Positions 15,801-41,447 of a stretch of DNA of 64,000 nucleotides are shown here, piece after piece. Position numbers and translations under genes: made by a program. The notes beneath the pieces were generated by a model that was given only the letters and a program-made list of their open reading frames with translations, was not told where the DNA came from and made no database searches. The stretch's first letter is position 1. The number at the start of each line of letters is the position of its first letter. The stretch comes from Amphiscolops sp. MND2022 (taxonomy: Eukaryota). The DNA lies in assembly GCA_964187785.1 (NCBI GenBank), contig OZ076413.1, forward strand, positions 8,308,001-8,372,000, given 5' to 3'.

Positions 15801-17836
15801 TTCAGTCCTGCTTTCTGGATCTGCTGGAACACTGCTTCGATGTTGACAACCAGTTCGTCCACGTTGTGTGCAGCTCCCCCAATGTCGTCGACGTATTGTG
15901 CACATTTATCTGCTTTCACTAGTGCATCAAGATACTCGCGGATTGTGCTGTTGAATGCTGAAAGTGATCTATTCAATCCTTGAGCAAGACGGAGGTATGC
16001 GAAGGTTCTGCTGCCAAAATTAAATGCGAGGAGCTGGATTGACTGTTCATCGGCCATCTGAAGGCAGTGGTAAGCTTGTGAACAGTCGAGCTTACAGAAG
16101 TACTTCTTGCCAGCCATGTGTTGAGCGGCGTCTGCTATCGTAGTGACCGGGTGATTGTGCTGGTTGTAGTCGTTCTTGAGGAGGTGGTTGATGCGTCTCA
16201 AGTCGACTAGGATTCGCAATTTTCCATTGGGCTTCCGTTGGGCAAATATCGGGGACGAGTATTTGCTGTATGGAAGTGTGGTGATGATGCCGTATTCTTG
16301 CATCAGAGCCAATTCGACGAGGAGGTCGTCCTTCAGGTTAGTCGGGGTCGGTAGGCTCTGTGCGTACACCGGGTCATCATGCTTGGGTGTCAATTTCATT
16401 TTGAAATCGGTGTTTATGCCTATGTTGAGGCGGTGACGAGCAAAAATCGTGTGGTATTTGACCAATAAGGCTTCGATCCGCTGTTGTTCTTGTTCGGTGA
16501 GGGTTTAGTCGTCCCAGCTGAAGTTCTTCAGGAACGTCCTTCGTTGGTCGTCGTCGCGTGTAGGGTCAAGTTTCTCAGCTTCACGGAGTTGGATAGTCTC
16601 ATCGTAAATACGGCGTTCGATTTTGTTGAGTTTTTCAGGATCGTCGCATGTTTCGGGTGTTGGGTACCATCTTTTGTCTTTACTTGAGTCTGGTTCTTGA
16701 AACAGCTGATTTATGACATTGGTGGCTTCATCTGGGAATTTTGTGATGAGTGTTAGTTGTTCACTTGTCATTGGTTGAACATTTTTTGCTTGGTTTGGAG
16801 TTAAGATGCGGAAGACTGCCACTGTTGTGTTTTGGGGAATCGTTATTGAATGGTCCAAATAGTTGGTGATTTGGACGTGTGTCTGCTGGTCGTTGATCTC
16901 GGACATCGATGGGGACACTAGAAGTTCCGTCTTGCGTTCGAAAGCTGGGAATGCCTCTACCGTGCCTGTCACTTGGCCGATGTCTTTTTCTGATGTCACC
17001 GGAATGAAGACTTGTTGTCGTGGTTGTATTGTCGTCTTCTGTGATGCTCTGAGTTCCAACATCTGCAATTTGAATTTCCCATTTTGTGGTCTCAACTGGA
17101 GTGTAATTTCTGGAAATCTAACGATGTTGTTTGCAAGGTCCAGGGTTACGGAATATTTCTTGAAAAATGACATTCCAATCAATATGTTTCCCATTGTCGG
17201 TAAGATCATGAAAGTCTCTTCAAAGACTTTTCCTCCGATAAAGAACCGAAGGAGGACTTGCTTCCGGACTGGAACTATACTTCCGTTAGCAATTTGCATT
17301 TTGAAGTCCGGAGCAGGGTACTCTTCAAGTTGGGCCGCTGGGTGGGCTTGTAATATTCGGCGTAGTTCGTTTTCGGACATTGCGCTTTGGATAGCCCCTG
17401 TGTCTAGCAGTCCTTGGTTTTCATATGCTCTGAATTGGAGGGGGACGTAGAGCATTTTGTTTCTTTTGTCTAGCTGGAGTGTTGCAGTGAGAGGCTTGAT
17501 GTTTGTCGTCTTCGGGTTATTTGACGACTTCACTTGTGGTGGGTGTTTCGAGTCTCGTTTTGCTGGTCGGGTAGTCTTTTCGCTAGTTCGTGAGTCCCTT
17601 GGTTCACAGTCCTTTGTTGTACATGAAGGGTCGTCTCCAACTAACGGGAGAATGTGGTAGTTGTTGTGTGACACTTTGTGTACATAGTATTTCTTGGGTA
17701 GTTTAGTCTGGGGGACAGAATGCTGCCGACATTCTGGCGTGTGAGTCTTCGAGTCGTAGTAGTGGTTGATTTGTGGTTGTTTGCGCGCACTGTTGGTCTG
17801 GGTGTGTTGGGGATGACGTGGCTTTACAAGTTTTTT
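12884..17836 (-). pseudogene. pol: pol of element B (protease, dUTPase-like fold, RT, RNase H, integrase) in one frame with three nonsense codons
   Basis: PR LLDTGAIQS; RT QYVDDIG; RNase H CDASEHAAG..EFLAM..TDNKAL..ADYLSR; IN HGDPMQGH..CTDC with IDLVG/TDKG/GMVERTH. ORFs 16505-17674, 14681-16465, 13616-14623 and 12884-13579 share a frame, separated by stops at 16505, 14681 and 13616. Confidence 0.95.
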
Positions 17837-19377
17837 GAATTCTGGGTGAATTCTTCATTGTAATCCTCGTCGTAGTAATCGTTCTGGCCTTCTGTCTGTG
17901 TTGTTTCACTTGTTGCTTGGGCTACGTAGTAGGGTTGCTGTCGTGTGTTCTGCGATTGGCGGAGGTCTCGTCTGAATTCGCGGTTCTCCGTTGTTGACTG
18001 CTTCTGGTAAGGTACATTCTGGTAGGCTGATGCACCTGGCACGCGGTCTCGGCAATCTCGTGCAGAGTGTCCGACCTTGCCGCAGATTTGACACACCAAT
18101 TTTGGGTTATATCGGGTTTTGTCAGTCTGGGATTGTTGGTTGTTGCTATCTTGTTGAGGGCGTTGATAGGTTTTGGTGTGGATTCCGTTTGATTCATCCC
18201 GGAGGCGTTTTCGACAGTCAATCCACTTGTGACCAACTATGTTGCAAAATCTGCAATTGCCTTCGAATTTTCGTTTGACTTCTTTATTTGCATTTGGTTT
18301 CGCCGCGTTGTTGCTGGTGGAAGTCGTCTGTTGGTTTGTTTGTTGTTTGGCAGGGTAATTCTGAATGTTGTTCAGAGGCTGCATTCCCGCGTTGTTCGGT
18401 AGCAGTTGTGCGTACTGGCAACGTCTCTGAACGAAGGTCTTGATTTCTTCGCTGGTAGCGTCGTGCTTTCCTGCCATCGCTAATTCATTTTGTATCTGGA
18501 TTGGCAATTTGGCAAATAAGAAGGTTTCTGCTATGTCGTTTGCTTTTTCACCGTACGCCTGTTTTGCCAGCTTTTTAAACTTCGTCAGGAAGTCGGCAAA
18601 TGACTCCGTTGTCGGGTCGTACCTCATTTGATCGAACTTGTACTTCGATACTTCTTTGAGGTCTTCTTTGGCGTATTCCTTGCTGAATGCCTGGAGTATG
18701 TCGGTGAGTGTTGTTTCGGTTGTTATTTTCAAAGTTTGCCAAAATTCAATGGCGTCGTCCCTGAGTAAGCTTTGGAAGTAATTTAGCTTCTGTTCTTCCG
18801 TCAATTTGTGCATGTGGGGCCGGAGATGGTTTTTGAGTAAGTGTTCAAACTCGTTATATTTCTCTCGGTTCCCACGGAATAGGGGGACTTGTGTTTGGAG
18901 TATTTTTGGCTGGATCACTCCATCAACCATTGTTGTTCTGAGGTGCTGTATTTCGGACATTACGTCTCCCATCTGTGGGTCGAGCAGTGAAGGTGGAGTT
19001 CTTCTTGGCGGTTGGGTATTGGGTGTGGGCGGTGGGTTCGCCAAGACTCCTGTCACCATGTCAGAACGTACGGACGTCTCAGAATTGTGTACGTCTCTGT
19101 AGTTCTCTTCCCTACTGTTTGACATTTTATCAGTAAGGGCTCTCACAATACTTGTTAGTTCGCTAATTTGTCGGTTCATTTCCATAAACCGTTGCTCGAT
19201 TCTATGTTTTTCATGGTCGCGTTCAATCTCTCTCATACCATTCAAGTCCTCATTCCCGTCAATATTTTCAGCAAAGTGATCGGCAACACTCATGTTGTCC
19301 TCATCTCCAGAGTACTCATTCGTTTCTTCTCGGCTGAATCTGTTTTCTCTATTGAATCCTGATCGAGTGTTAACCAT
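17824..19377 (-). CDS. gag: Gag of element B (517 aa, two CCHC zinc knuckles)
   Basis: Intact ORF with CRFCNIVGHKWIDC and CQICGKVGHSARDC. The first 106 codons lie inside the 5' LTR. Confidence 0.95.
   Translation of the reverse strand: MVNTRSGFNRENRFSREETNEYSGDEDNMSVADHFAENIDGNEDLNGMREIERDHEKHRIEQRFMEMNRQISELTSIVRALTDKMSNSREENYRDVHNSETSVRSDMVTGVLANPPPTPNTQPPRRTPPSLLDPQMGDVMSEIQHLRTTMVDGVIQPKILQTQVPLFRGNREKYNEFEHLLKNHLRPHMHKLTEEQKLNYFQSLLRDDAIEFWQTLKITTETTLTDILQAFSKEYAKEDLKEVSKYKFDQMRYDPTTESFADFLTKFKKLAKQAYGEKANDIAETFLFAKLPIQIQNELAMAGKHDATSEEIKTFVQRRCQYAQLLPNNAGMQPLNNIQNYPAKQQTNQQTTSTSNNAAKPNANKEVKRKFEGNCRFCNIVGHKWIDCRKRLRDESNGIHTKTYQRPQQDSNNQQSQTDKTRYNPKLVCQICGKVGHSARDCRDRVPGASAYQNVPYQKQSTTENREFRRDLRQSQNTRQQPYYVAQATSETTQTEGQNDYYDEDYNEEFTQNSKNL
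17830..17836 (-). promoter_or_regulatory. Putative -1 ribosomal frameshift heptamer A-AAA-AAC (element B)
   Basis: TCA AAA AAC TTG TAA at the gag end. The -1 frame is open (KKLVKPRHPQ...KVSHNNYHILP) and continuous with the protease ORF. Confidence 0.85.
19047..19058 (-). promoter_or_regulatory. Primer-binding site of element B
   Basis: TGGTGACAGGAG directly after the LTR CA, identical to the PBS of C. Complement CTCCTGTCACCA looks like a tRNA 3' end, possibly Leu (inferred). Confidence 0.9.
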
Positions 19378-20204
19378 TGTTTAAAAGATACAAGTTGGTA
19401 AGATGTTTAAATTTGAATTGGTAAGTTTAATAAAATGAGCTAAGAGTTGTTAAAGTACGACTGTATTCCAAGGTGGTTAGTTCTACTGACTGGTTTGTCC
19501 TAATTGTGGTAGCACCTTCAATCTCATAATTACTCGCTAATTGCACCTGAGTATTTGAGTCTCTTCTTGTTTGATTGTTTTAGTAGACCTGCTGTTAGCA
19601 CCTTTGTACGACTGGTCACTTCAGTCGTCACTAGTTACTATTTCGGTATTTCAACTCTAATGTCACATTAGTATGCGTCGTTAATTTCACTACTTCACAG
19701 CACGTGTTAATGATTGAGGTTTTGAGTATAATTACTGCATTTGATTACTGGTAATACTTCTGCAATTAGCACTGAGTGTGGAATATGACTATAGCTTGGA
19801 GTCGTTTCTAGTGATTCTACAAGGTTTCACTGAATGAATATTTTATGAATGATGCTAAATGAACTAAACGATGCTTTAGGGATGAATTGTTAAATGTTTA
19901 AATATGGCAAACTGCATGTATTTTTAAGTAAGAAAGGTACGACCAGATATGCCAGTCGTTTGTATAATTGCCCAAAAGGTTGCGTTAAGAAATATGTAAA
20001 GCGGAAAATGCTTTTGTGCATTTTACAGAACTCAAATTGCACTGGTAGTTTGTGGCATGAATGAAATTGGGATGACGACTTTGTAGTACGGTCGTCCATT
20101 GTATGTATTTACATGTATTCTAAACTGTTTATGATTTAGTGTTTTAGCTGATTGGGGAGGACTTCATCTCTCAGTCGTTGTATCTCATACCAACTGGTAT
20201 GACA
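19059..20204 (-). repeat. 5' LTR of element B (1146 bp)
   Basis: TG...CA, followed on the plus strand by TSD ATCCC; copy of 4688-5833. Confidence 0.97.
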
Positions 20205-20722: not shown

Positions 20723-22265
20723 TGTCCTAACCAAATTCATCATCACTTTGTTGAGAATCCAATGAATTTTCTCTACAGTGATTTGTTTGGTTACTTTTGT
20801 TCGATATTAATCTTGGAAACTCCTTCTGAACATTCTGAGCTGATTTATTAACATTTTCTGGATGCAGTCTATTTGACCGAAGGTCCTTCTGAGAATTTTC
20901 TGGGGCTGCATTGTCTTGATGCAGTCCATCTGACCGAAGGTCCACACTTGTATTTTTTGCTGAATTCTGTCTCCTGACGGCATTTTCGATGCTGGGCAAC
21001 ACTCCAGTGTCAATTGCAGTGTTTATAACATCCAATATCTGAGAATTTAAGTTTGATTGTAATTCTTCGAACTTCCCTGACATCTGTGACGAAATTTCTG
21101 AGCTAATAGCCTTACTAGTTTCAACAGTCAGACAACTATTTTCACTCAGATTAGTATTCCAGTAGGACCTGTAGTTGTTTTCATTTTCATTTGAACTACC
21201 TTCTCGTCTATTTGACTCTGAGTCGATTTCATTTTCACTAGTTCTATCTTGTATTTCACTGTTATCCCTTTGATAACTTCCCAACATAACATCGAGATTT
21301 TCAATATCTGAAATGACGTCAGATTGACATGAGCGTTTCTCTTTAGCTTTTTGCTTTCTAGTTGAAGGCATATTCAAAAGAGGAAATTCAGTTCAACAAT
21401 AAATTGGTGAAAGTTTCGAATGAACAAGGTTGTGTATTTAGCGTATTTCGTTTATCAAAGAATGATACCTCTTAGATCAAGTTCTGAGTAATTATAGCTG
21501 TAACAGTATGACAAGTATAAATTCGCACGCCATGTTACTAAATTTGGATTGAGGTCAGTCTAAATTTAGCTCTAACCTAGTCACTAGGTCATCTGATTCT
21601 AAATAAAGACTGTGGGTGGTGACATTGCGTCACTTTAGGGGGGGAGGTTATAAATAGTATCAAACTAACAACATATCAATTTACATGAAACTAATTCTAC
21701 TTCAAAAGCAACAGTTCATGAGGCGGCAACGTCAATATTTATCAATACATCAAATCTGACCTAACGTCAGCATGACTGCAGTGGATATTCCACACTGCAT
21801 TCTGATTGGTTGAAATAAAGGTTTGACTACACGTCGATTTGACTGCAGTAGTTTATCAGCTAAGTGTTTTACGCTTTCATGCATGTTACGCTGTATTTTA
21901 AGGCACTTCCAAATTAGTTCTATAGAAAAACTATGAAACACTTATATCAAATACTTTCAGTACAACGTATGAATAATAAGAGGATTGCAGTATGTTGTAT
22001 AAAATGGTATCGAACCAGCACTTGTCATAGTTCAAATGTGGAGTTGCTGTCCCGGTGACCTATGGTCAACTTGTAGAAAATACATGATGTATAAAATAGT
22101 GAATATATAGGTTTCAAAGTTATCAGTTTACATCAGTTTATTATTGTAAACCTTCTTAGGTAGGCAGAAGAGTTTATATGGGCTAAACCCCCGGTCGTGG
22201 GTTAGTTCGGTCACTTTCGGGAGTTATTTGGTAGAGAATGCCGTCACAGGCGACAGCCTGCGACA
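20723..22265 (-). repeat. 3' LTR of element C (1543 bp)
   Basis: Direct repeat of 36010-37546 with more substitutions and indels than the B LTRs. Carries the Gag-N copy (ORF 20727-21377) and the C-terminus of ORF-X. Confidence 0.95.
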
Positions 22266-22998
22266 CTCCCAGGGGGTCTAGAATGAAAGACCCGGCTTTC
22301 ATACCAGCTTGGAAAGCGTCGCGACGTGCTGCACGTTGTTCATATGTTTCTCCTTCGATGTGCGTTTGCTCCAAATACCCCAGGGTGATTTCGGCTCTGA
22401 TGTCTTCAATTGATTTGTCACACACTACACAACCGCTGTGGAAATTCTCGTTTTGAAGGCCACATGAACCGCTGACGCTAATTCCCAGCCCAGTAATGTG
22501 TGCATTGCCATACCATGAGTCAACTTCGTCGTTCCGGTAATGTTGGCTAACCAAGTTGGTGGCCGGGGTTTGTTCTTCTGGTGGTGGTAACCAGGGGGAG
22601 TCTCGAATCGGGTTGAGTTGACTGCACTGTGCGATTGGGTGGTCATCTATGTAGCAGTCATGGTAATTGATTGGGGGACCACCGACACACCAGTCAAGCA
22701 GCTCCTGGGAAGGCTCAGTAAAAGTGCTAATTGAGTCAGTTAAGTCTTCATGGGGCAAACTGAGGTCATTTAGATACTGGGTCAGTTCGGTTGTCATAGC
22801 ACGTCCTCCTACTAATTGAGGGGGGAAAGGAATATTTTCTCGGTGACAAGCGAGAACTTGAATGTCATCATCAGAATCGTTGTTATCAGTGTTATCAGCC
22901 ACAGAGACTGAGTCTATCTCCATATCCTCGTCTGAGAATTGATATGAGAGACTAACAAGCGGTCTAGTTAGATCGTCAATAGAAAATTGCAGAGACAT
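22183..22998 (-). CDS. Element C ORF-X (271 aa, acidic N-terminus, CVVC motif), overlapping the PPT and 3' LTR
   Basis: Intact ATG-to-TAG ORF. The last 27 codons (from DPLG-VSQAV) lie within the LTR. No signal peptide or TM segment, so it is not env-like. Confidence 0.7.
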   Translation of the reverse strand: MSLQFSIDDLTRPLVSLSYQFSDEDMEIDSVSVADNTDNNDSDDDIQVLACHRENIPFPPQLVGGRAMTTELTQYLNDLSLPHEDLTDSISTFTEPSQELLDWCVGGPPINYHDCYIDDHPIAQCSQLNPIRDSPWLPPPEEQTPATNLVSQHYRNDEVDSWYGNAHITGLGISVSGSCGLQNENFHSGCVVCDKSIEDIRAEITLGYLEQTHIEGETYEQRAARRDAFQAGMKAGSFILDPLGVSQAVACDGILYQITPESDRTNPRPGV

Positions 22999-24754
22999 CG
23001 CTTTGATGAAGCGTTGGAGGAGCAGTTTCTTAGCAATTTTGAACCAGATTTGGGTTCAGCCGATTTTGAGAAGTTGTAGTAGAAAACTGATTTGGTGCAG
23101 TCAAACTGCCCTGAGGTCCAATCTTATTTTCGCGGGTGAGAGGAAGCAGGAAATTCGTCTTCACTTTTCCCTAAATTTTCCTTTTTAGGCTTTCAGTCTA
23201 CTTAACATTCGTCAACAATTCATATGTAATTGGTGGTGTTGGCTCATTAACTAGCCACTTGACATGAATTTACATTCCTCTTCAAAGGCGTCTTAGCGTT
23301 ACGTTAAGAGGTGTTACCGTTAACTCTCTGTCAACAAACAGCATCAAAGACCGTCAGTCATGTTGACGGCAACGATTTGTTTGACCAATCATGCTGATTC
23401 TCAGAATGTGTAAAGAAGTAAGGTGAATGAAATAATATGTAAATGATGAATTGGGACAGATTAGATGACTGAAGGAATTGTAAATGGAATGATCAGTAAA
23501 GTGAATATGGCAGGGTGGCATGATGAAGTTGGTTGATTTGTACTGGAACGTGTACATCACCGGCAGGTTCAGTACACCTTGTGCAAATCTAATATTAACT
23601 AATAGGACGTTAAATTAACTAATACTTGTTGTAATTTTTATGTCAGGTTTGCCACGACTCTTTCTTCTATAGATTTATACCAGTTTTGATTTGGACTAAT
23701 TGACCTTAGGTTATTAAGTGATTTGGCAGTCTTCAAGTTCGCTTAGTACAGTTTGTTAAAGGGTGTATAAGGTGCAGTAAAGTACACCAAACGTCTAATA
23801 GCAATGTTAATTGCTATAATTAATTTAGTATCATAATTTTCCAGTAAAGGGATAAAGTATTAGTAGTAAATGAATGCAGTCAATCAGACTGTCAGTCAAG
23901 TAACGTTAATGACGTCACAAAGGTATGTAAAATTGTTTACTGGTCCATTGGTGTAGTGGCGCTGTAACGGGATACATGTAATTGATTGCTGTCAAGTGGA
24001 CGTTTGGTCAGCTTGTGTAAACAGTATATTACTCACGAGTGTACTCAGTCAACTAGTTTCAAACGTCTTTCACTTTCCAGTCTTCGCTGTGTTTCCATTC
24101 CCGAGCTGCATCACTTGAGCTATACTTATTTACGTTTTGTATTTCGTGTAGTCTCTCTAACCTTGGGTTTTATAGCTAACTCTGTCGTGTTTCGACAAAT
24201 TGACAAGTTCAATTCGCATCGACCGTTTTAACATTTTGATTTATTGACTTCCCATTTAGTTCCATCCTTTTGTTAAATTAGGTATTGTTACTCGGGCTTC
24301 CAGATTCAAACTTTCCACTTCCTTGCGTATCATAGTCAAATCAGTTCTACCCATCCAAGTACTGCAGTCACATTGACCTTTGGTCAGTTATTATTAGTGT
24401 GGAAAACGATTGCAGATCAGCAGTCACGTGTCACGCCAGTGATTTCCTCGTTTTGGTAGCTGCACAGGCTGACTTTGGACATCTTAATCTTTCATTGACG
24501 TTTGAGAGATTGACCTAACGACACCCCTCCTGTTGGGTTGCAAATTCTCTTCTATTTCAAAGTCTAAAACTGAGCCTCATCAATTCTGCCTTTCCTTATG
24601 GACAAGACATCAGGTTGGTTCTTTAATTGTGTTAGAAGTAAACTTGATCAGGGCTTAGTTCTAACTTCTTAACTTCCTCCATCATGAAAGGTTTGCTAAA
24701 GGAATGAACATTGTGTCAAACTCATTTCCGGAAGGTTCATAATTTTGCGGTAAG

Positions 24755-27700
24755 ATGGATTTTTATGCAGGAAGTCAACCGCGCTCATTCATTTCTTTCC
24801 GTTTAGGAGATATTTCAAACGGCCAACCAGCTCAGAATACTGGAGATAATATGGAAACAAGCCAAACTGGAGTTGACGTCGCTGAACAGGAGAGCGATCG
24901 TACAGAAGTTGCCATTGAGGTGTTTGAGATCATCTTAGCTTCAACCGAGCCTGACGAAACTAAGCAAAATAATTTGCCGACAAAAGTAGCTACTCTTGGA
25001 CAACTGTCAAGCCCTCAAGTCAAGAAAAAGCTGAATGCATTTCACTGTTAGCTGAGATGTACCGTTGAGGAGGTTTTGTTTTCAGCAGCAGTGGCTCGGA
25101 TGAGAGCGTGGGCGCATATTGTGCCAGAAAAGTCGAAGCCATGAGTCCTAGCAAAATTCAGTCCGAGACAGTCAAGCACTGTTCATCACCGAAGGCCAGT
25201 TTTAGTGAAGCTATCCGTCTCGCTCCCGTCGGCCAAGTTATTGAGACTTCTGGACAAACTGAAGGGCCAACACTGGATGATCTTCTCCTCTCCACTCCCC
25301 AGCTACATCCTAACGTTCAAGACCTAGGACAAGGAAGTAAACTTCCCAAAAGTAAGGTCAACATTGATACCTCTGAAATTGTGTTTGCATTCTCCCCTGC
25401 CCTGGAACATCGTGTTCTGAGTTGTGCTTCTACATCAGGTCATGTGGACCCACCGTCCAATGCTGTGTCCGGAGGGGAAGAGTTAATGTCGAATGGTGAA
25501 ATTGAAGGGCCTGCGAACACGGACTTAGAGTCAGAACACTTCAAGAGGTCTACACTCGCTGACGCTATTGCTACCCCAGTTCGCAACTTTGCCCCCCGAT
25601 TCAGTGAAGGATCAGATCATGTTTCCCCCGATGAGGCCATTCAGCGTTCCGGAAGACCTGCTCCCCTTTCAATCCACAGTCAGGAACTCATCCGTACTTA
25701 TTTTTAAAAGGCTCATTCGTTCAGTTTACCCCAGGGCCATCCTACTATTTCTCTCAACCAAGAACAGATAGGTCATATTCTCCGCATCGTTGCAGACGAG
25801 ACGGCCCGGGCTTCGTTTGAGATGCTGAAGAGTGTAGTGACCCGTGCCAGCCAATTGAGTCTTCGAGATTCTCCCACTTTGCGGAAGACGCAGATGCACG
25901 GCCCTTGTCTGTTCGTTCATGTACAACTGGGTCAGAAGGAGACCGGACGTCATTTGGGATTGATGATGTAGGACGGGACATTGATAGCAGAGGGACAACC
26001 TGTGGAGGTGACTTTTGGGGTGACGAAGACACTGGAAATTGTTCTAGTCGTTTGTCGACCATGCAGGTACCCAGTCCTCCCGTTTCCGGCAGTAGTAGAA
26101 CTGATTTAGTTGGTACCCCTAATCCAGGCGCATGTGAAATTCCCGGAAACCAGACTATGGCCGAACTAAAGCAAGAAGTCTCCAAGGCCAAAAATAAGGG
26201 CCGCAAGAAGCCCACGCCCAAGGGTAAAGTGGAAAACCCTCGCAGAGCTGTGACTAGATCTAGTAGGATCCTCAGGGACGAGCTTTTAGATGGGATGCCT
26301 TGGGCGCGCACATTCGTATCTGGTCTGAACCCTTACAATTTTTATTGTCAAATTTGTGAGGGGAACGTCTCAATATATTGTCGAGGCGTCAAAGAACGTT
26401 TGAGACATCACTCTACCGAACGTCACCTCCGCAAAGACCAAAGGTGGCGATATGAGCACCTTTCAGTCGAAGATTCTCTTACTAAAGCTATACACCACCA
26501 GGTCAGAGATGGAAGGGGTCAGGTGCTATCTACAAATGATTTACAGAAGGAGTATCAATAGTTTAAGGACGCTATATTAGTGGACATCGGGGAAAAACTG
26601 CCGTACTACCATGAAGCCATGTCTGGTAATACCCACATGAATTCCTCTTCGGAAAATCGAGTCAGGGTCCAGATTTCAATTCTTCGCCACTTTCTTCCGT
26701 CAGTTGGTGACCTTGGACAACTTAGAGGATTGTGGCAAGATGTTGGAGTGGTTGTCAACCACCAAGCCCTCTTCTCAGATTTCAACTGGGGCAAGGAAAG
26801 ACTTTCCGTGAGTACTTTCAATTGATTCCGAAGATACTTCCTTGTTGCAGCATGACTATCAAGGTTTGAAGTCGTATCACTGTATAACCATAATTAGTTG
26901 TATCTAATTTGACTAGTCGTCCTTCCGACTGCATCGTCTCATTGAGTGTGCTCTTCATTTACTTAGTCGTAATCATCTTATGTTCCAGGTCTTGTTCCAT
27001 CACATTTTCGTCCAAGTGCTTGATGATATTGGTCACCACGTCGTGTCTACCAGTTTCTACGCAGTGGAGTTCGAAGTGAAGGGTGTTTTCCTCTTCCTCC
27101 CTTTGAGATTCTGGAAGGACAAGCAGCTTTGCCGAGTTCTCCGGGTCCTAGGAAGAACCTCAGCTGAAGTTGCCTTACTTTCAGGTCATTTAGCAGCCAT
27201 TTCCACAAGACCCTCTCTAGTTTCCTGTAGTGGGTGCTCATTGGAATTAGTGCAGTTAGTGGACAACAGTTCCCTATTCCCCTTGGCCATCCAGAGCCCA
27301 CAGAGCTTCGAGGAACTTTTTCTTCAGAAGCTTATGAACAAGCGTACCCATTGTGTCTTTGGGCGGATTGACTTTGTGTCAGTCTTACAGTACCTGGTCG
27401 TCTTCCTTGGGGGAGCCTCAGCTTGGAGTTTGTCCTACTTGCTCCTGAGTTGTCAAAGGCTAGTTGACGGTTTTCACATGTGGTCTGGTCTTCACTAGTT
27501 TATCATTTCATGTTTCATGTTTGGTTTTAGGCAATCCGGAGTTGCAAGTTAGATTTTGCCAAATTGCATGTGTTATGCGAAGAGCTACTGGCCAACTGGA
27601 GTTCTGTCTTGAAGTTCTTGAGTGCGAATTCACTTCCCCAAGAGATGCAAGGAATAAAGAACCAGGTATTTTATTCGTGACCAGAGTACTAAATGTCCAC

Positions 27701-29440
27701 TAGAGCCTTGACGTTAGGTCAAGGTTTTATTTCCTTTCAGCCTCAGCACCTGGTGGGGACTATTGTGTACGACGTCTTGTTCACCACCAAACTCACATGT
27801 GGTCTTGTCTTCACTAGTTTATCATTTCATGTTTCATGTTTGGTTTTAGGCAATCCGGAGTTGCAAGTTAGATTTTGCCAAATTGCATGTGTTATGCGAA
27901 GAGCTACTGGCCAACTGGAGTTCTGTCTTGAAGTTCTTGAGTGCGAATTCACTTCCCCAAGAGATGCAAGGAATAAAGAACCAGGTATTTTATTCGTGAC
28001 CAGAGTACTAAATGTCCACTAGAGCCTTGACGTTAGGTCAAGGTTTTATTTCCTTTCAGCCTCAGCACCTGGTGGGGACTATTGTGTACGACGTCTTGTT
28101 CACCACCAAACTCGAACTCTTCCAATGTTTGGCGAGGGATTGTTAGTATGCTTCAGTTGTTGACGACAGTTGAAATTTCCTAAGGCGACCCTTCTACATA
28201 TTGTTCTTTGTAGTTTAACGTGATTTCCCGATGAGATTCCCTTTAGTGTACTCAACGTCCTCCTGACTGCAGTCGAAGGTATCTTGTAATGTTTAGACGC
28301 TAACATTTTCACCATCAACCTCAGTGGGCGCAAGGACAGAGGATTTTATCTGTACCGGGAGTTGTGTCAGTATTCATTCAAGTTAGCTCGGAGATGTACT
28401 AATCCCCTAGATCTGCCAGACGACCAGAAGTGGCAAGCCATCTTGCATCTCGACATCAAGAAGGTTACTGCTCTCACCGTAACTGAGTTTATCTCGAGGA
28501 TCAAGCTGGGATCTAGATTGCGGGTCGCTTGTAGAGCTACGGCTGAAAGAGAGATTTGTGACAAACAGAATCAGGGTCTACCAATCGATGCTCTAGCCAA
28601 CAAAAAGGGGATGACTTTGGAAGATCCGCCCCGAGTTACATCTCGCATTTATTTGGTACAGTGCAGACCCAAAAGTCTCTCACGACGGATTTGATGAAAG
28701 GACTTGGAAGCTTTGATCTGGATACCTTACTACATGACCCTCTCTCTCAAGCCGAGTATTGCTTTACTCAGCTGTTCACTAGTTTCCGGCTACGAGGATA
28801 CTTTTCTTTTGGTCAAGAGGCTGAGTGTCACGAGGAATACAGGTCATTTGTTGACGAGCTTCGACGTAAGTATCCCGAGTTGCATCAGCCGGTCCTCTTC
28901 GTCAGAGATACTGTTAGTTTCCTTATTGAGCAGCCTTCCCTCCATAACCGCCCATTGCTACACAAGATTTTCCGTTTGGCTAGCTTGTGTCTAGACGAGC
29001 CATTTCAGACTCTTCCTCCTGTTAAATTTGGCTCAGTGGATTCGGATAATCCGACGAGTAGTTTTGTGGATGTGGTATTGCCCGTTCAATCCTACTTTAA
29101 GAACGTGACTAATGGTATGGAATCTGTTAGTTCCGACGATTCTATTGCTGCTTTCCTCCGACTCGAGCCTACTTTTGTTGGGGTTGGGACTTCAGATGTA
29201 TATAGTCCTTGGAATAGTGTGGATTTCTTTGGTTGTGCTGGAAATATAGAGCAGTTGGATCCTAGTAGAGAATACAGTGGCACTGAAGACTTAGCGTCAA
29301 CTTCCAAACCTGCCGTTGCCAGCAAGCCAGACAAGTCCAAGATGTCTGGACCAGCTAAGAAGATGAGTCATTTGCTTGATGGGAAGGAGTTGGCGCATTC
29401 TGCCAAGAACTTGTTGTCTGCAAGTTGTTCTAAATTTAAT
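24755..29440 (+). pseudogene. Element C antisense, intron-containing accessory gene, homologous to 6756-11170
   Basis: YCQICEGNVSIYCRGVKERLRHHSTERH aligns with the B Zn finger. Phase-0 intron 26808-26988 (GTGAGT...TTCCAG). RKDRGFYLYRELCQY aligns with B SRDRDLSFEVEFVSF, and LRGYFSFGQ..EEYRSF..LLHKIFRLASLC with B LGFLGDVQ..QQYNDV..LLCVFKVVVCC. Several stops and frameshifts; 3' end approximate. Confidence 0.8.
27474..28113 (+). repeat. Near-perfect 319-bp tandem duplication containing a 135-nt exon
   Basis: Units 27474-27792 and 27793-28111 with one visible mismatch. Each contains TTTTAG/GCAATCCG...GAACCAG/GTATTT. Confidence 0.93.
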
Positions 29441-29657
29441 TTGTACACATGTACAATTGTTTATAGACTGCATATTTTGTTCAATTTCTTCTTTATACTT
29501 TTATTTCTAACAGTTAGATTGTGTATTTGTTTTGTTGGTCATTTGTTCGTGTCAATTTTGACACCAAGTCTTGTTCTGTCTGGAAGTCGGACCAAGCCCC
29601 ATAAAGATACTATTTATTGGAAAAGAGTCCGGGGGGCAATAAATTCAACTTTTCTGT

Positions 29658-32600
29658 CTAGTATCTGTTTTCATCAGTGAAGTTGGGGGTAGGGTTAGGG
29701 CGTAAATTATATTTTCCTCCCCTAGGACTTTCATTCTCTACAACTGAATCATCTGTTTCTTTTTCTGATAAATCGGGCACGATTATATCCTTCCCTCTAG
29801 AATTTGAAAATTCAGAATTTCCTGCCTCTGAGGTGCTCCTAGAGGTGGCTGGATCAGTTTCCAAATCAGTAGCTGATGGCCGTCCAGTTGACCTATGGTC
29901 CGCGTCAGCCGCATTTTCTGCCGACTGTTCAGGAAGTTGCTCAGACTCGGCTGAGTCAGTATCATGTTGCAGTCTAGCGGACCGAAGGTCCACTTCGTCA
30001 ATTTCATCTCCACGCTGCTCAGTAGTAGCGTGGTCAGTATTTCCGTCGCGTCGAGTGGACCGAAGGTCCAAATCTGTAATTATGGTGTCCCGTTGATCAA
30101 CATCCATCGGAGAATCGTCAGAAGCGTTTTTGGTTTCGGAAATTTGCGGGAACTTGTCAAATTCTGTCTCACAAGAAATAATCTAAAGATCATCTTGTGG
30201 TATAATAATTCCATCATCAGCCTGTAAGTTTCCTTCCGGACGAATACACGTATTTCTGTATTCGGAGTATATTTTTATAGTCGTATGCGATGTAAGATTT
30301 GTGTTTTATTGGAGTTAAGTTTTCAGACTATGTAGTTTTCATTCGGTAAAACCTTCTCGATGACATATATTCCGATTCACCGGAACTCTCGAAACGGAAT
30401 TTTTGACCCTTGATTGTCCGCTATTGGCTGTAGTATAAAACAATAGTCGCCCTGTTGTAATGGGGCTGCCTTGGCTTTGCGGTTGTAATATTTTTTATAC
30501 TTTAAATACGATTGCATGATGTTCTTCTTCGTCTTGTCTATGAGAATTTGAGTACGTCTTTTTAGTTCTTCGGCAAAATCTGTTGTTGGTAAAATTTTTC
30601 GGTTAAGGTTCAGTCCTAACCGATGGTCTAGGATGTTATATGGTACTCTTCCATGAAAAATCCTGGAAGGTTCACAGCCGATGCTTGAAAGGTGAGTGGT
30701 GTTGTAGTTGAGAACAGCCAATGGTAGGTATTTGTGCCAGAGTCGACGATATTCTCCGGAAGCCATTTTAAGGTTGCTCTTAAGGCTGGCATGAGTTCTC
30801 TCTAATTTACCTTTTGTTTGCGGATGCTTCGTTGTTGCACATTCAATTTGAATTCCCATTATTTTTGCGACCTCCTCGACTAGACGTGATGTAAATGCCG
30901 TGCCTTTGTCCGTGATCAGGGTTGTCGGTAGGTAGGCATGTCTAGTCATGATATCAAAAAGTACTTTTGCCGTACTAGAGGCTGAGGCGTCGGTTACTGG
31001 GTAGGCAAATAGGTATCTATAGAAGACGTCAAGTGCAGTAATGATATTTTCATATCCTCCACTCGGTGGGCGGTTAGGTAAGAGATCAATTTGTAAGGCG
31101 TCTTCAGGACCAAGATCCCATTCGGGCAGATTAAGTAGTTCTGGCGTTATCGATGGGTTTTTAATTCTTTTATCTTTCATGCATATTTCACATCCTTGGA
31201 GCCATTTATTGACGATCTTTGCAAATCCTGGGTAGTAGTATTTTTGACAGATTTCATAAAGCATCTTGGATATTCCTGGATGTTTATTTGCCGTTCCATG
31301 TAGTGATTGAAGTAATTCTGACACTAGGTGTTCTGGCAAAAGTGCCTGACGGTATTGTACGTTTCCTGCTTCGTCATAATAGTCTCTGATGACGATGTCT
31401 TTCTGCACTGACAGACGGTCAAGTTGATTGCAGTAGTGCCGGTAACGTGAATCCTGCTGTAGAATCGTCCACGAATAGTCTTCTTTCTGCAGTTTGAGAC
31501 GTAGTTGGTGCAAAAATACATCATTTTGTTGTTCAATAGCCATGGAGGTTATACTTGATAGCCTTTGTAGGGTTGTTTGTTGTAAAGAAGTACTGCTGTG
31601 GACACTGAGTTTTTCAAGGAAAATGTCAGGTATTTGGTTCGTCGGTTGGGACCTGGCGTCCTTTTTCCGTTGCCACATTTGCTCTTCGGTTCCCTCGTCG
31701 TCGTCTGTAAAGAATATCTGGTCCTCTTCCGTTACTCCAGCCGATTGTACGTTGAGTTCGCACGGTGTCGTCGATATATCTTCCCGTATACGGAGTATGA
31801 GTTTTTCTTTTGGACAGATTTCTAGGCGTGACAAATAGTCAGTTGCGGTGTTGTTTTTGCGTGGAATGTGGGCGATTGTGAAATTGAACTGGATAACGTA
31901 GTCACATGCGTTCCACAAAGTTGGAGGAATGATTTTTGTATGACAAAAGCGAGTGACGGACTTGTTGTCTGTTAAAATGATCACCGGTTTCGGGGTCCCC
32001 CAAACGATATGTCCAAACTCTTTAAAAGCAAAGAAAATTGCTTAGAATTCTTTCGCATAGATAGGCATTTTCAATTGGGCGGGACTAAATGTCTTGGATC
32101 CATATGCTACTGGTGCAAACGCTTTTCGCGTTGGACTAAATTTCTCCATTGGATCGTCCTCGACGAGAACTGCATAGCCTGCTGCCGAAAAACTAGCATC
32201 GGTCATTAGTGCTATTTGTTTGTTGGGCAGAGGTTGTTTGAGTGCAAGTTCACATTATCGGTCAAGAGCTTTGTTGATCTCGGTGAATTGTTCTAACAGA
32301 CCAGGCGTCACTGTGACCTTAGCGTCGTTTTTCAGTAGTTTGAAAAATAGTTTCAGTTTTTCTGAAAGCCTAGGGATGTAGTTCCGATAGTAGTTCAGGA
32401 AGCCCAAGTATCTTTGAAGTGCTTTTTTGGGCTTTGAAAATTTCGTTTTCTCTAGGAAGTTTTGGACCCTGGGTCGTTGTGGCTGCACTCCTTCAGGGGT
32501 GATGGTGCGTCCCAGGAAGTCAATTTCCTTTGCTCCAAAATGGCAATTATGCATCGTTAGTTTGAGACCTGCGGTCCTAATGCACTCAAAGGTTGCCCGC

Positions 32601-34851
32601 AAATTGTTGATTAGTTGCGTAGCATTGTTGGCAGCAATCCCAATATCATCTACGTACTGAGCGCATTGGTCCGCTTTGATCACCTTGTCCAGATATCCAC
32701 GCATAAAACTCGAGAAGGCTGACAGTGCCCTATTCAGACCATGCGCTAGTCTGCGATAGGCAAAGGTTCTGCTGGCAAAGTTGAAAGCCAGCATCTCAAT
32801 TGACCTCTGGTTGGCCATCTGGAGGCAGTGATATGCTTGAGAACAGTCCAGTTTGCAAAATAGTCGTTTGCCTGCCATGTGTTGCGCGGCGTCTGTTAAA
32901 TTACTGACAGGATGGTTATTGTTGATGTAATCATCAGAGATCAAATTATTGATCTTTCGGAGGTCGACCAAGAGTCATAGTTTGCCATTTGTTTTTTTCT
33001 GAGCAAAAATGGGACTAGCAGATTCGGAAAATGGGAGCGTTGTTATGATCCCATATCGATGTAATAATGCCAGTTCAACAAAGACATCTTCCTTGAGATT
33101 AATTGGCGTGGGCAAGCTTTGACTATAGGCAGGGGAGTCATCTTTAGTAGTTAATTTGACCTTGAAATCCTCGTTCATGCCTATATCAAAGCGGTGTCGA
33201 GCAAAAACGTCGTGAAATTCGACAATTAGCTCTTCAATTTGGGTTATTTCTGTTGGATTTAGCGTCGAGTTTGCCCAATCAAAGTTAGCAAGGAACTGTT
33301 TTCTAGCCTCAGGGTTATCTTGAGGGTCAAGTTTTTCTAGTTCCTGGAGGTTTCGTAATTCCTTCAGAATCCGTTGTTGGATTGGTGTATGTGTCTGAGG
33401 GTCTCCGGGTTCTTTTCTTCTGGAGTAGGGAACCAATAGTTTTCGCTGTCGTCCCTAGTTTTCGGAGATTTGATCAGACTGCTGGCATAATAGGCAGCGT
33501 TTTCGGGATTATCTTGTAAAAGGTGCCATGTGGTCACCGGGTCAATGGGTTTGACGTATTTCATCTGTTCTGGTGTGAGTACAGAGAAATTAGCGATGTG
33601 CGAACCTCTTTTGAGGGTGTAAGATTGATCAGTGAAGTTGTTCACATGAATTGTAACCTGTCCTTGGGTCAGGGTGACTAGAGCAGCGCAGAAAGTTATG
33701 TCTCCAGCATCTGCAAGGTCATTGCTGGGTTGAAGGATTCCGTTGACGTTAGTGTCATCAAATAATTGAGAGTACATGGAGACCATATGTCTATCATTGG
33801 GGGGAATAGTAATATCTTCCCGCGCACAGATAGGTTCCTTGACGTTAGTGTACTTGTGATCCGCTGTGTTCAATTGCATGGAAAAGAATGGGAAATTTAG
33901 GACTCTCTGTCGCGTGTCTAGTATGGTATTGTTCCTTTGGAGGAACGAAAGACCAATTAACGGACTTGTAAGTTTTTCCATAACAATGAAGATCTCATGG
34001 AAATCGATGTCTCCGACCTCAAATTTGAGTTCGACAGTGCTCTTTGGAGTTTCCAGCTGTCCGTTAGCAACCATAATTTAGTAATTTAGAGGTTGGGAGC
34101 TGGGCCCTCTTTGATTATCGACTGAGGGGCTAATAATTGGAATAAGATCAGCTTCTGGGATTGCGCTAGATAGGGCTCCCGTGTCTACAAGGCCATCTAA
34201 TGTTAGTTCGCCAAAATCCATTGGAAAGTAGAGCATGCGTATCTTGTGTTTTAGTCCGAGGTTGGTAGTCAAGGGGACGTAGTCGGGTTCACCATCCCGT
34301 GAGATTAACGTGTTCACAAATCCTTCTTCCACCGTTGCAGTTAGCGTGACCAGAGGTTCGTTTGGAACAGACGCCTTCATTGTTTCATTCTGAGTGGCGC
34401 GACTAGTGGTGGACCATCTTCTTTGCCATGGGTCTACCAGAGCCTTGTTTAGAGCCATGTTGAGGTTTTGGTCAGTTTCATATGAATCGGGTTCTATTTC
34501 CGTGAAATTTTTATGGAAATTGTTGTAGAAATGAAGATGATGTTGGTTGTAGGTCTGAATGTCGCAATAGGGGTCAAATCCAAAGTCTGGGTCTAGATAA
34601 TAAGGATTGTAGTTATCTATGAGAGGGAGAGGACAAGTAGTAGTAGTATTGTGTTGCTGTCGTTCGGACTGGTAGTCCAAGTCGTGTAGTTTGGTAGCGG
34701 TATTTTTCACCTGCTGCTGCCAATCAGCTGATGAATTTTCTTTAAGTGATGAGTAGTATTCGGTGTAATATATAGTAGAAGGGTCAGAAATTATGTATTG
34801 TCTGACGCCTAGTTTTTCATTAAAGCAGACTCGTGGCGAATCTAGTTTTTT
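29658..34851 (-). pseudogene. pol: pol of element C, fragmented
   Basis: PR LVDTGALSS; RT QYVDDIG; RNase H TDNKSV..TDYLSR; IN HGTANKHPG..CEIC with IDLL/TDKG/GKLERTH. Spread over ORFs 34078-34710, 33364-34074, 32975-33436, 32255-32971, 30377-31984 and 29658-30107. Confidence 0.93.
34845..34851 (-). promoter_or_regulatory. Putative -1 frameshift heptamer A-AAA-AAC (element C)
   Basis: CCA AAA AAC TAG at the gag end. The -1 frame is open into ORF 34078-34710. Confidence 0.85.
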
Positions 34852-35997
34852 GGGTTTTTAAGAATGGAGGTGGTGGGTTTGTTATTGTTGGGGTCATCTT
34901 GACTCATGGTAGTTTCCCCTGTTTTGGAATTGTCCAATTTGAGGTTTTTGGGCTTGAGGTGAGCTCCAGCGCCTTTCCAACATCGTGGTAAGGCCGGGTG
35001 GTTAGTTTTGTCGCAAGTTGGGCATTTTGGATATTCTTTTTTGGTATCCTGTCCGTCATTGCGGCGTTGTTCCTCCTTTCTTTTGAGTTTTCGCCAATCA
35101 TCTCTGACATGCCCATGATTTTGCAACAGTTGCAAGTAATATTTGGGTCAATGCCGGATGAGAGGAGGCCAGTACCCGGTCGTGTCGCTGTCGTCGGGGC
35201 TGTGGACATTGTGGGGTAGTGAATGTCATCGCCTTCCTCAAGTCCATTCAACTCCAATTCACGTTCAAGGTGTGTGACAATCTCTTCTTAGGTCGCATTT
35301 TCAAGTCGCGCCATATTGACTGAACGTGTGAGTTTGGGCGGCAATTTGGCATATAGAAGACTGTCAATCATAGCCTGAGCATGTTCCCCAAAGGCCTTTT
35401 CAGCACCTTGGTTAAGTTCTTCAAGAAAATCAGGCAATTTCATGGTATTCGGGTCCAATATCAGTTTAGGCCATTTATGTTTCGCTGTTGCCATACAGGG
35501 ACTCAGTTTTGACATATTTCCTACGGAAAACCGCTAGTATATCTTCCAACGTTTGTCTATTGGCTGAATTGATGTTGCGGAATGTCTGTAGTGCGTTTTT
35601 GCGTAGGAACGAGTGTAAGTGGTTGGTTTGTTGATTTTCATTGTTTCCGTCATGTCCGGTTGCATCTTTATCATTGTGTGAGAAAGATCTTCAAACAGTT
35701 CAAACTTTTTGGAATTACCGTCAAATGTTAATGTAGTCGTACTGACTGGTCGTACCATCAGTGTTTGGGCTGACGGTCTGCTGTTCATTCCCATAATAAC
35801 ATCTGCGAGTCTGTTAATGGGATCTATTGGTGTTTCCGAAGGCACATCCCGGTTATTTGTAGGGACTGGTGGTAATTGTGCCGGGATGCTGGTGTCAAGC
35901 GTGTCATCATTGACACTTTTTTGGGAGGGAGTTTTATTTCGGGATTGCATGGGCCGTCCGGTCGGGAACTCAGGGACCATTTGGGGGGTAAGGTTGG

Positions 35998-36009
35998 CTC
36001 CTGTCACCA
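35998..36009 (-). promoter_or_regulatory. Primer-binding site of element C
   Basis: TGGTGACAGGAG, identical to B, immediately after the LTR CA. Confidence 0.9.
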
Positions 36010-37546
36010 TGTCGTAACCAAATTCATCACCACTTTGTTGAGAATCCAATGAATTCTCTCTACAGTGATTTGTTTGGTTACTTTTAATCGATAATAATCT
36101 TGGAAACTCATTCTGAATATCCTGGGCTGATTTATTGACATTTTGTGGATGCAGTCTATTTGACCGAAGGTCCTTCTGAGAATTTTCTGGGGCTGCATTG
36201 TCTTGATGCAGTCCATCTGACCGAAGGTCCACACTTGTATTTTTCGCTGAATTCTGTCTCCTGACGGCATTTTTGATGCTGGGCAACACTCTAGTGTCAA
36301 TTGCAGAGTTTATAACATCCAATATCTGAGAATTTAGGTTTGGTTGTAATTCTTCGAACTTCCTTGACATCTGTGACGAAATTTCTGAGCTAATAGCCTT
36401 ACTAGTTTCAACAGTCAGACAACTATTTTCACTCAGATTAGTATTCAAGTAGGACCTGTAGTTGTTTTCATTTTGATTTGAACTACTTTCTAGTCTATTT
36501 GACTCTGAGTCGATTTCATTTTCACTAGTTCTATCTTGTATTTCACTGTTATCCCTTTGATAACTTCCCAACATAACATCGAGGTTTTCAATATCTGACA
36601 TGACGTCAGATTGACGTGTGCGTTTCTCTTTAGCTTTTTGCTTTCTAGTTGAAGGCATATTCAAAAGAGGAAATTCAGTTCAATAATAAATTGGTGAAAG
36701 TTTCGAATGAACAAAGTTGTGTATTGAGCATATTTCGTTTATCAAAGAATGATGCCTCTTAGATCAAGTTCTGAGTATTTATAGCTGCAACAGCATGACA
36801 AGTATAAATTCGCACGTCATGTTACTAAATTTGGATTGGGGTCAGTCTAAATTTAGCTCTAATCTAGTCACTACGTCATCTGATTCTAAATATAGACTGG
36901 GGGTGGTGACATTGCGTCACTTTAGGGGGGAGGTTATAAATAGTATCAAACTAACAACATATCAATTTACATGAAACTAATTCTACTTCAAAAGCAACAG
37001 TTCATGAGGCGGCAACGTCAATATTTATCAATACATCAAATCTGACCTAACGTCAGCATGACTGCAGTGGATATTCTACACTGCGTTCTGATTGGTTGAA
37101 ATAAAGGTTGGACTACACGTCAATTTGACTGCAGTAGTTTATCCGCTAAGTGCGTTTTTACGCTTTCATGCATGTAACGCTGTAATTTAAGGCACTTCCA
37201 AATTAGTTCTATAGCACAACTATGAAACAATTATATCAAATACTTTCAGTGCAACGTATGAATAATAAGGGGATTGAGTATGTTGTATAAAATGGTATCG
37301 AACCAGCACTTGTCACAGTTCAAATGTGGAGTTGCTGTCCCGGTGACCTATGATCAACTTGTAGGAAATACATGATGTATAAAATTGTACAGGTTTCATA
37401 GTTATCAGTTCACATCAGTTTTTTATTGTCAACCTTTTTAGGTAGGCAGAAAAGTTTATTAGGCGAAACCCCCGGTCCTGGGTTAGTTCGGTCACTTTCG
37501 GGCTTTATTTGGTAGAGAATGCCGTCACAGGCGGCAGCCTGCGACA
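36010..37546 (-). repeat. 5' LTR of element C (1537 bp)
   Basis: TG...CA, followed on the plus strand by TSD ATTGG. Confidence 0.95.
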
Positions 37547-37712: not shown

Positions 37713-38302
37713 ACCAGTTTGTAGAAAACCATTTTGTGAAATCCAGTTTTTCAGTTTTTAGAAAAGTGAGGTCACGTTTGTAGTTTTTTTCTACAAATTG
37801 GATCATGGTACTTTTTACGAGCAATTTGTAGAAAAACCGACCAGTTTGTAGCACAACAGTTGGTAGAGTCGAGTTTGTAAATCAGCAATTCAAGAAAAAC
37901 AATAAGACCTATAATGTAGGAACGATGCAAAGTGTAAACCGCGCCTTGGATATGTCACCCTTTTCCTTAGTGACCCGCCGCCCTTTGGGGCCGCTTATGT
38001 TCCCTTCTTGCTAAGCGAGGTCGAACAGGAGCAAAGATCTAGCGGGAACGGAGATCTCGAAGCGACCGTAGTTGGAGCTGGTTTTTGCGTGGGTGAGGGC
38101 GAGCGTGCACATCGGATATGCCCCATACTTCAGTTTTTAGATCTTATTGCTTTAGATCTTAAGTCATGGAGCTGTCAGGATCTTGTGTGAATGAAGTCAA
38201 GTTGGTAGAATTTAAAAATCCAGTGTAGAAAAAACTTCTACAAACTGGACCACTTAGGACTAATTTGTAGAATTCTACAACCTGGTTTTCTACAAACTGG
38301 AC
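37713..38302. repeat. MITE-like segment with repeated and inverted CCAGTTTGTAGAA motifs
   Basis: CCAGTTTGTAGAAAA near 37713 is the exact reverse complement of TTTTCTACAAACTGG near 38287, with several partial internal copies. Confidence 0.5.
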
Positions 38303-39830: not shown

Positions 39831-40099
39831 ATATCACTTTTTAGTTTTAGATCCTAATTGACCTTTTTTTCTCAAATTAGATCAAATTAGAAGAGATTTT
39901 TAGACCTGATTTAGATCAATTTATTAAGATCTCAGTTTTGCCCCCTCTCTTAGATCTTTTTCTTAAGACCTGATTCAACGTAGCCGTTGCAGACCACGGG
40001 TGTGTGTCTTCCCCCAACATGATGATGCACATGGCACTTGATTGATTACGAAGATCCATAATATCTGATAGAAAAAAATGGGGAGCAATCCCTGCAGCA

Positions 40100-40500: not shown

Positions 40501-41447
40501 GTATTTTATTCTCAGGGAGTGGAACATTTGCAGAAATTATCTCAAGATTGTAAACCAGGGTACTAAGCTTCTGGATCTTGGAGAGTTTTCGTTGTTTTTG
40601 CGACAGTTTTCGTTGTTGTTGGAAGACAGTGGTCACAGATCCAAAAGCAGTTCATTTTGTTCATCACTCTGACATCTGTAGCAGGGCTTGGCAATTATTC
40701 ATTGCAATTGATTGATTTCAAAAAAGCTTGCCAATCAATAATTGTTAATTGGTTTCCTAATCAATCATTAATTGCAATGATTGCAATCATTGGCATAAAT
40801 CAATAAACTGAAAACTATGGTCTATCAAACAAAACAAAACTCTCTAAACATCTGAAAACAAACACAATTTATCATCACTAGTCCTGTAAAACTTCCGTAA
40901 CTGTCTCGATACCCCAAAATTTCCTATTGGCGTTTAGAAACAATTGCTGTTCGAGGTGTACAGGGGCCAGGCTTTGGCGGATGTCACTGAAAGCGAAGCC
41001 AGCAGAGCTAAAAAACCGTTCGAGAAGATTGCTACTAGGCTTCGAAAACCAAATTGCAGTAATCAGAATCGACAGTGTTCTTGGCGCGTTTCTGTAAAAT
41101 CTTCGAAGCAAAATCTTCAGTGTCACCGTCGTCACACACTTCAACCACTTCACTGTCATCTTTCATTTTCAGTTTTCCACAAGTGAGTTTTTCGACCATT
41201 GTCAAATCCGCTTCCATTCCGTCTATAATTTTCACAACTCCGTTCTCAAAATGGTTCGATTTCACAAATGATGCATCTTTCACCAAATATTTTTGATGCG
41301 GGTCAAGTCGCGGGAATTTTTTCATAGTCTCATCGAATAAGAGTCTGACCGATGAGAGATCCAGGTTGTCCCTTTGTAGGGCTAGAGTGACCGAATTAAA
41401 ACTCTTCAGATCTTGATAAATGGACTCTATGTTAGCATCTTCTTGAG

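Follow-up and report, generated by a model that had tools for sequence, protein, structure and literature searches.

Predicted antisense genes with shared introns and a probable hAT origin in two Ty3/Gypsy retrotransposons of Amphiscolops sp. MND2022

How can a gene with several introns persist in an element that is copied through RNA, and does its persistence say anything about its function? These questions are raised by a stretch of 64,000 nucleotides (the window) of the genome of Amphiscolops sp. MND2022 (assembly GCA_964187785.1, contig OZ076413.1, forward strand positions 8,308,001 to 8,372,000). The window harbors two neighbouring Ty3/Gypsy long terminal repeat (LTR) retrotransposons, B and C, each carrying a gene with predicted introns on the strand opposite to gag-pol (Table 1). 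According to a first-pass annotation of the sequence, the antisense gene of C keeps an intron at the same position as that of B. On balance, both genes are best regarded as descendants of a captured hAT gene, kept as a spliced antisense third gene whose product would not cut DNA and would bind that of its own element.

The Pfam domains encoded on the open reading frames (ORFs) of element B follow the order Gag CCHC, protease, reverse transcriptase (RT), RNase H and integrase. In element C, the integrase was found by Pfam and the RT by alignment to B. Both classify as Ty3/Gypsy LTR elements, with paired LTRs that have TG..CA ends, and have the start of the primer-binding site in common; the identity between them is 58% for RT, 41% for integrase and 30% for a part of Gag. 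A distance of 0.5 kb separates them, in a stretch dense in repeats. The gag frame of either element starts within the LTR and continues across the primer-binding site. The RT had no match among phage records, and related loci were not found in the metagenome or viral contigs searched.

In both elements the antisense gene occupies the region between the integrase and the 3' LTR and is encoded on the plus strand, opposite gag-pol. The six introns of the B gene are all GT-AG, 153-227 nt long and T-rich, and a single frame is preserved throughout. In run X1, thin, unspliced contigs covered B, while the C gene had zero cover. Another B copy in this run, represented by single contigs of depth 2, has different letters at both stop codons of the B gene; the 14 differences listed for the B exons (seven non-synonymous, five synonymous and two at stop codons) are too few for measuring selection. 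For the C gene, the start given in the first-pass annotation (24755) is supported by a 696-aa relative, which aligns there from its residue 1, and the start motif opens 40 of 69 long relatives. The proposed end at 29440 is not a fixed 3' end; the frame of the last exon remains open to 29677. Exon 1 of C represents one exon of approximately 690 codons, to which relatives of about 700 amino acids align in three frames from 24755. It is disrupted by frameshifts (near 25010-25030 and 25900), by stops (at 25705 and 26559) and by a gap of five codons. The window copy of the C gene as a whole is a pseudogene, in which frameshifts, several stops and two gaps of five codons each are accompanied by a 319-bp duplication. 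The two parts of the duplication are 99.7% identical within a copy whose LTRs are just 94.7% alike, which suggests a recent duplication or an assembly artefact.

Whether the two genes are related is hardly visible from the window proteins themselves, of which only the finger is significantly similar in pairwise comparison (score 54, z 5.8, 0 of 500 shuffles). A pairwise alignment of B exon 5 with C exon 2 and an alignment of the two last exons alone (E 0.22) were not significant, a tblastx comparison of the antisense regions gave nothing significant, and both a global pairwise alignment of the proteins and a full-length global HHalign run were unsuccessful. The profiles of the two families are colinear over 375 columns (probability 92.6%, E 4.7e-7). 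With our own profiles the score was 43.3, compared to 15.4 ± 2.3 (maximum 20.6) for 30 column shuffles; the match minus the finger is weak (score 24.3, E 0.022). The identity between the B and C proteins is about 18%. Run on family profiles, the formal alignment envisaged in the first-pass annotation bears out the homology of the proteins and leaves the exact codon of the first intron unsettled.

For this first shared intron, the coordinates of the first-pass annotation are exact, and both introns are GT-AG, phase-0 candidates. The claim that they fall at the same aligned point holds within one codon on the downstream side, where HHalign gives a one-residue offset (B189 = C181) and two separate AlphaFold models have 23 and 22 residues between the junction and the first strand. 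On the upstream side the correspondence is loose, by up to 6 codons, with a 6-column HHalign gap at the junction and posteriors of about 0.2. The second shared intron aligns exactly in codon and phase (posteriors 0.87 and 0.89) and the third is found in a gapless alignment (posterior 0.55-0.67). With phase frequencies assumed, two or more of the three coincidences occurred by chance in 1 of 20,000 draws for exact positions and in 0.6% within 6 codons. With the second intron exact, the third probable and chance coincidence rare, the proposal that the intron predates the split of the families is supported, and better so than in the first-pass annotation. The remaining introns differ: one is unique to C, and three upstream introns (6997-8109) are unique to B, where exon 1 of C is unsplit; judged by these gene models, introns are gained or lost inside the retroelements. 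At the donor of the second shared intron, Val is found at position +1 in 20 of 24 B relatives, and the remaining four stop short of the donor. Among 12 C relatives, ten reach it and continue with Val (GT; five), Ala (GC; four) or Asp (one). The window copy of C and the relatives closest to it have a GC donor, more distant relatives a GT donor, indicating a GT-to-GC switch within the family.

The donor of the first shared intron could be mapped across many families, as the relatives in the protein database are single-exon gene calls which read on into the intron. The search with the C finger exon yielded 119 clusters (of 2792 candidates), that with the B finger exon five (of 908) and that with the next exon 34 (of 420), with up to 137 near-identical members per cluster. 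At E ≤ 0.001, 931 representatives were obtained; the best 150 of these 931 were examined and all lie apparently inside these families. Among 261 C-type proteins, 139 extend to the end of the exon; 130 of these continue with Val (GTN), 113 of them with Val-Ser. The read-through tails have a median length of 11 residues (117 of 139 end within 30), and conservation in the C family is high up to the exon 1 junction and then collapses. All five B-family clusters which reach the intron end in xCQ/V. At the other side of the intron, read-through proteins of both families have Gln (CAG) immediately before the next exon. The B and C introns themselves showed no significant DNA similarity. Two relatives out of 139 are intron-less: in P0169 and P0287 the exons are joined at the predicted junction with the spliced spacing kept. 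Both stem from short contigs (2588 and 938 nt). In a tree calculated without P0293 they belong to different subclades, and each has neighbours that carry the intron. They represent spliced transcripts or else precise losses of the intron, and either way the junction would be spliced; their placement points to a spliced RNA intermediate.

Retrotransposons package and reverse-transcribe their sense RNA, on which antisense introns are not recognized by splicing. An ancestor of the Ty3/Gypsy families would have taken up an intron-containing hAT transposase gene in antisense orientation between the integrase and the 3' LTR. According to established retrotransposon biology, the introns would survive copying, as only the sense RNA, unspliced at antisense sites, is reverse-transcribed. 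The protein would be made from a separate, spliced antisense mRNA, for which the conserved donors, phase and exon sequence, together with the lack of conservation in the intron interiors, argue strongly. The placement, homology and introns of the genes, the survival of the introns and the spliced, translated antisense mRNA are, taken jointly, very probable. In the first-pass annotation, maintenance of the intron was taken to argue for long-term function of the spliced product. This argument needs one correction: splicing of the sense genomic RNA leaves an antisense intron in place, so that its mere persistence needs no selection. What speaks for selection is that relatives with as little as about 40% identity share the donor, its phase and the protein sequence leading up to it, whereas the interior of the intron is not conserved.

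Where the gene came from might be deduced from the fold of its product. Searches with the antisense protein against Pfam and PDB sequences were blank (the Pfam hAT domain was not found), as were an ESM Atlas search with P0120 and Pfam scans of the last exons, where hAT insertion and C-terminal domains would lie. AlphaFold models of P0120 (B type) and P0169 (C type) cover the finger and the core. Both contain the succession helix, three strands, helix, strand, helix, corresponding to an RNase H-like core encoded in the exon after the first shared intron. In Foldseek, the hAT transposase Hermes was the sole match of P0169 at E ≤ 0.001 (6.8e-4, 283 columns) and made up 8 of the top 10 rows; the Hermes alignments include the helix preceding the core (model 432-590). 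Structural alignment to Hermes with VIA-align gave Z-scores of 5.3-5.5 and root-mean-square deviations of 4.3-4.6 with 111-117 aligned residues. The CCHH ligands of the finger are intact in 119 of 132 proteins matching the finger pattern. Its neighbours in the ESM Atlas are zf-C2H2_12 (SPIN-DOC/GTF2IRD2; 0.91) and zf-BED (0.90); Pfam gave no zf-BED match. In both families a finger is predicted to be followed by a helical region and an RNase H-like core, as in hAT transposases, where the finger, helices and RNase H-like core are arranged in this order (PMC6027215). From these predictions, the antisense protein is likely of hAT origin.

The catalytic residues of Hermes are D180, D248, R318, W319 and E572 (PMC6027215). 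In the antisense proteins the corresponding positions were assigned from the predicted strands and the general layout of Hermes, without residue-level superposition, and the Glu (E572) was not located. In family C, 16 of 18 rows have Glu where strand 1 ends, and none of the 15 matched rows has Asp after strand 4; the catalytic aspartates thus assigned look lost in this family.

Several observations weigh against a spliced, non-cutting antisense gene derived from hAT. Splicing of the antisense genes is predicted here from sequence, and among all relatives the context of an LTR element is shown for B and C only. The confidence of the models, which are limited to finger and core, is low (mean predicted local distance difference test, pLDDT, 56 for P0120 and 47 for P0169). 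P0120 had nothing under E 0.001 in Foldseek, with Hermes at rank 40; this wide fold search was dominated by a helix from the read-through intron. In VIA-align, Pelota, Argonaute and CoaX tie with Hermes or exceed it (Z up to 6.1 and 7.0), so that Hermes is tied with others as to which RNase H-like family the modelled core resembles. For family B, 18 of 23 rows retain an Asp close to where strand 1 ends, and 21 of 23 an Asp or Glu after strand 4, so that a loss of catalysis is less evident in this family.

The fold results could also be explained by capture of a host gene or of another RNase H-like protein, e.g. Argonaute/PIWI-like or Mutator-type, instead of a hAT gene. This is consistent with actin-like folds, too, scoring equal to or above Hermes in VIA-align, with a match to the ISCth4 transposase (E 0.017) and with the missing Pfam hAT domain. 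It is nevertheless improbable, as Hermes came first in Foldseek and a hAT-type finger ahead of the core corresponds to the hAT domain order (PMC6027215). The acidic residues near both strand ends in most B rows would fit a still-active nuclease or transposase, at least in family B, serving the element as a second DNA-cutting enzyme. We consider this highly improbable: whole elements are flanked by 5-bp duplications and have LTR ends typical of integrase, the Trp of the hAT Arg-Trp pair is replaced by Ser in both window copies, and the first Asp is missing in the most diverged B relatives. In addition, the position which we take to be that of the CxxH motif reads DxxW in 19 of 23 B rows.

The target site duplications of hAT transposons are 8 bp long. 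Chance inverted pairs of 12 nt around the antisense genes number 74 for B and 142 for C, and none of them was accompanied by an 8-bp duplication with up to one mismatch. An inverted pair of 12 out of 14 bases (6536-6549 and 11567-11580) brackets the B gene; it has no matching target duplication and is probably due to chance. Since terminal inverted repeats (TIRs) with an 8-bp duplication are missing and the whole elements carry integrase-type 5-bp duplications, the antisense gene is treated as an accessory gene of transposase descent and not classified as a hAT transposon. Independent or recent hAT transposons nested in B and C, whose common introns would be those of the hAT lineage, are therefore a rather remote alternative to an ancestral capture. 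The hAT-like fold, the genomic context, which is not established for more than 900 relatives, and the weak inverted pair around the B gene would be compatible with such insertions. They are opposed, besides the missing duplications, by the identical position and strand of the gene in two elements which share a primer-binding site, and by the lack of Asp at either strand end in family C.

Under the preferred reading of a captured and disarmed hAT gene, the product is predicted to be a nuclear DNA-binding protein without cutting activity. Family-specific DNA recognition is suggested by the retention of the finger together with the fast divergence of the protein compared to RT and integrase. The protein might bind the DNA of its own family and, by countering silencing by the host, protect or promote expression of the element, in a way resembling VANC, the element-encoded, family-specific anti-silencing proteins of VANDAL transposons (PMC6719617). 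This role is put forward tentatively and by analogy: VANDAL is a plant DNA transposon, and VANC serves as a model for the proposed function. The main rival to anti-silencing, with the same origin of the gene, is a product that steers integration by tethering the integrase complex to chromatin or certain DNA sites, or by aiding nuclear entry. Basic stretches upstream of the finger, the preserved finger and DNA-binding region and the location of B and C close to each other in repeat-rich surroundings would be in line with it, and nuclear accessory roles have been proposed for plant antisense ORFs (PMC7264820). Steering appears unlikely, as integrase is conserved to a much higher degree than the antisense protein, which suits DNA recognition specific to each family more than it does an invariant contact with another protein.

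The plant Ty3/Gypsy elements Retand, Grande and RIRE2 (TRP28/PF04195) and the fungal Boty have antisense ORFs located between pol and the 3' LTR (PMC7264820, PMC11963269). According to a review from 2020, neither the origin nor the function of these ORFs is known, similarity to other transposons is missing, and a search for antisense transcripts that are spliced would be worthwhile (PMC7264820). The gene of B and C is similar to the Retand-type ORFs in position, orientation and retention across families. It differs in lacking TRP28 (PF04195; E ≤ 1, eight window segments and 22 relatives) and in its four to six predicted introns, whereas the word "intron" does not occur in the main text of the Retand paper (PMC11963269). 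The order of finger, helical region and RNase H-like core is found in hAT transposases (Hermes, Ac) and in the domesticated SPIN-DOC and GTF2IRD2. Unlike hAT transposons, the B/C gene is located inside an LTR retrotransposon, is devoid of TIRs, encodes a low-complexity N-terminus of 250-500 residues, has no sequence-level match in Pfam or PDB and appears to have lost catalytic residues in family C. Captured accessory genes in Gypsy-type elements include ORF3 of bdelloids, the planarian Burro and env, and the additional ORFs of animal LTR elements encode env, DEDDy, GDSL and apoptosis-type domains (PMC5408684, PMC6431247). In the main text of the bdelloid paper neither "intron" nor "transposase" occurs. 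An env-like third ORF is in sense orientation after pol, while the B/C gene is encoded on the opposite strand and hence not env-like. Among the papers found by searching, none described an antisense gene with introns and hAT ancestry in LTR elements; subscription journals, Repbase and supplements were largely outside this search, so a prior description is possible.

Several other features are located in the window (Table 1). An acidic, apparently multi-exon gene at its beginning may belong to a third element as its antisense gene; the finger-exon profile found no match in the last 79 codons of this gene. A sense ORF beside the 3' LTR of C has neither a Pfam match nor similarity to the plus-strand ORF at 1785-2411. 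A transposase-like fragment, which contains a BED finger (Pfam E 7e-5) and a duplication of 466 bp and which we take to be hAT-like because of its motifs, had no match to the antisense protein (E 0.56). An intron-free LicD-family ORF, a GIY-YIG ORF and an inverted repeat pair, probably belonging to a non-autonomous DNA transposon, were found as well.

Table 1. Positions of the features in the window (slashes mark exon-intron borders).
Feature	Position	Strand	Description
Element B	4688-20204	-	full-length Ty3/Gypsy LTR retrotransposon; paired LTRs, target duplication, gag-pol domain order
Element B LTRs	4688-5833, 19059-20204		99.2% identical; 5-bp target duplication ATCCC
B gag frame	17827-19380	-	
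B antisense gene	6756-11170	+	seven predicted exons, 1092 codons, two internal stops in last exon
B predicted exons	6756-6996, 7224-7349, 7503-7892, 8110-8672, 8830-9318, 9512-9722, 9912-11170	+	
B intron after finger exon (first shared)	8673-8829	+	phase 0, 157 nt, CAG/GTACCA ... TTTAG/AGC
B intron after core exon (second shared)	9319-9511	+	phase 0
B last intron (third shared)	9723-9911	+	phase 1
Element C	20723-37546	-	full-length Ty3/Gypsy LTR retrotransposon, decayed copy
Element C LTRs	20723-22265, 36010-37546		94.7% identical; TG..CA ends; 5-bp target duplication ATTGG
C gag frame	35537-36679	-	
C exon 1	24755-26807	+	start motif, long low-complexity region, CX2C..H-X5-H finger, helical region
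C intron 1 (first shared)	26808-26988	+	phase 0, 181 nt, TCC/GTGAGT ... TTCCAG/GTC
C exon 2	26989-27458	+	predicted RNase H-like core; frameshift near 27409-27417 and 5-codon gap
C intron 2 (second shared)	27459-27530	+	GC-AG in window copy, phase 0; homologous to B 9319-9511
C tandem duplication	27474-28113		319 bp, 99.7% identical; doubles exon 3 (27531-27665, 27850-27984) and intron 3
C intron 3	27985-28059, second copy 27666-27740	+	GT-AG, phase 0; without B counterpart; predicted from sequence
C exon 4	28060-28141	+	
C intron 4 (third shared)	28142-28213	+	probably homologous to B 9723-9911; frame broken at junction, phase unsettled
C last exon	28214-29440	+	stops near 28221 and 28287; frame break near 28660; AATAAA at 29638
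Acidic gene	1-1600	-	opposite plus-strand ORF 1785-2411
Sense ORF beside C 3' LTR	22186-23055	-	290 codons
Inverted repeat pair	37903-39856		207 nt, 83% alike, 1.5 kb apart
Transposase-like fragment	41038-43388	-	
LicD-family ORF	43867-44931	+	
GIY-YIG ORF	60912-62126	-	

The locus thus provides an antisense extra gene of an LTR element with a traceable likely origin, a DNA transposase, and with an exon-intron structure conserved over deep divergence. It supplies exact junctions and a specific biochemical hypothesis. Antisense placement would offer retroelements a route to carry intron-rich genes, which annotation based on ORFs misses; the database contains the antisense gene merely as exon-sized pieces. 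It is conceivable, if rather doubtful, that a whole Ty3/Gypsy clade domesticated a hAT gene together with its introns and retained it as a spliced antisense third gene through hundreds of subfamilies, with introns gained and lost and a donor switched from GT to GC, and that the disarmed product, as a DNA-binding factor specific to each family, shields or steers the element. If this is true, one transposon class would tame the enzyme of another.

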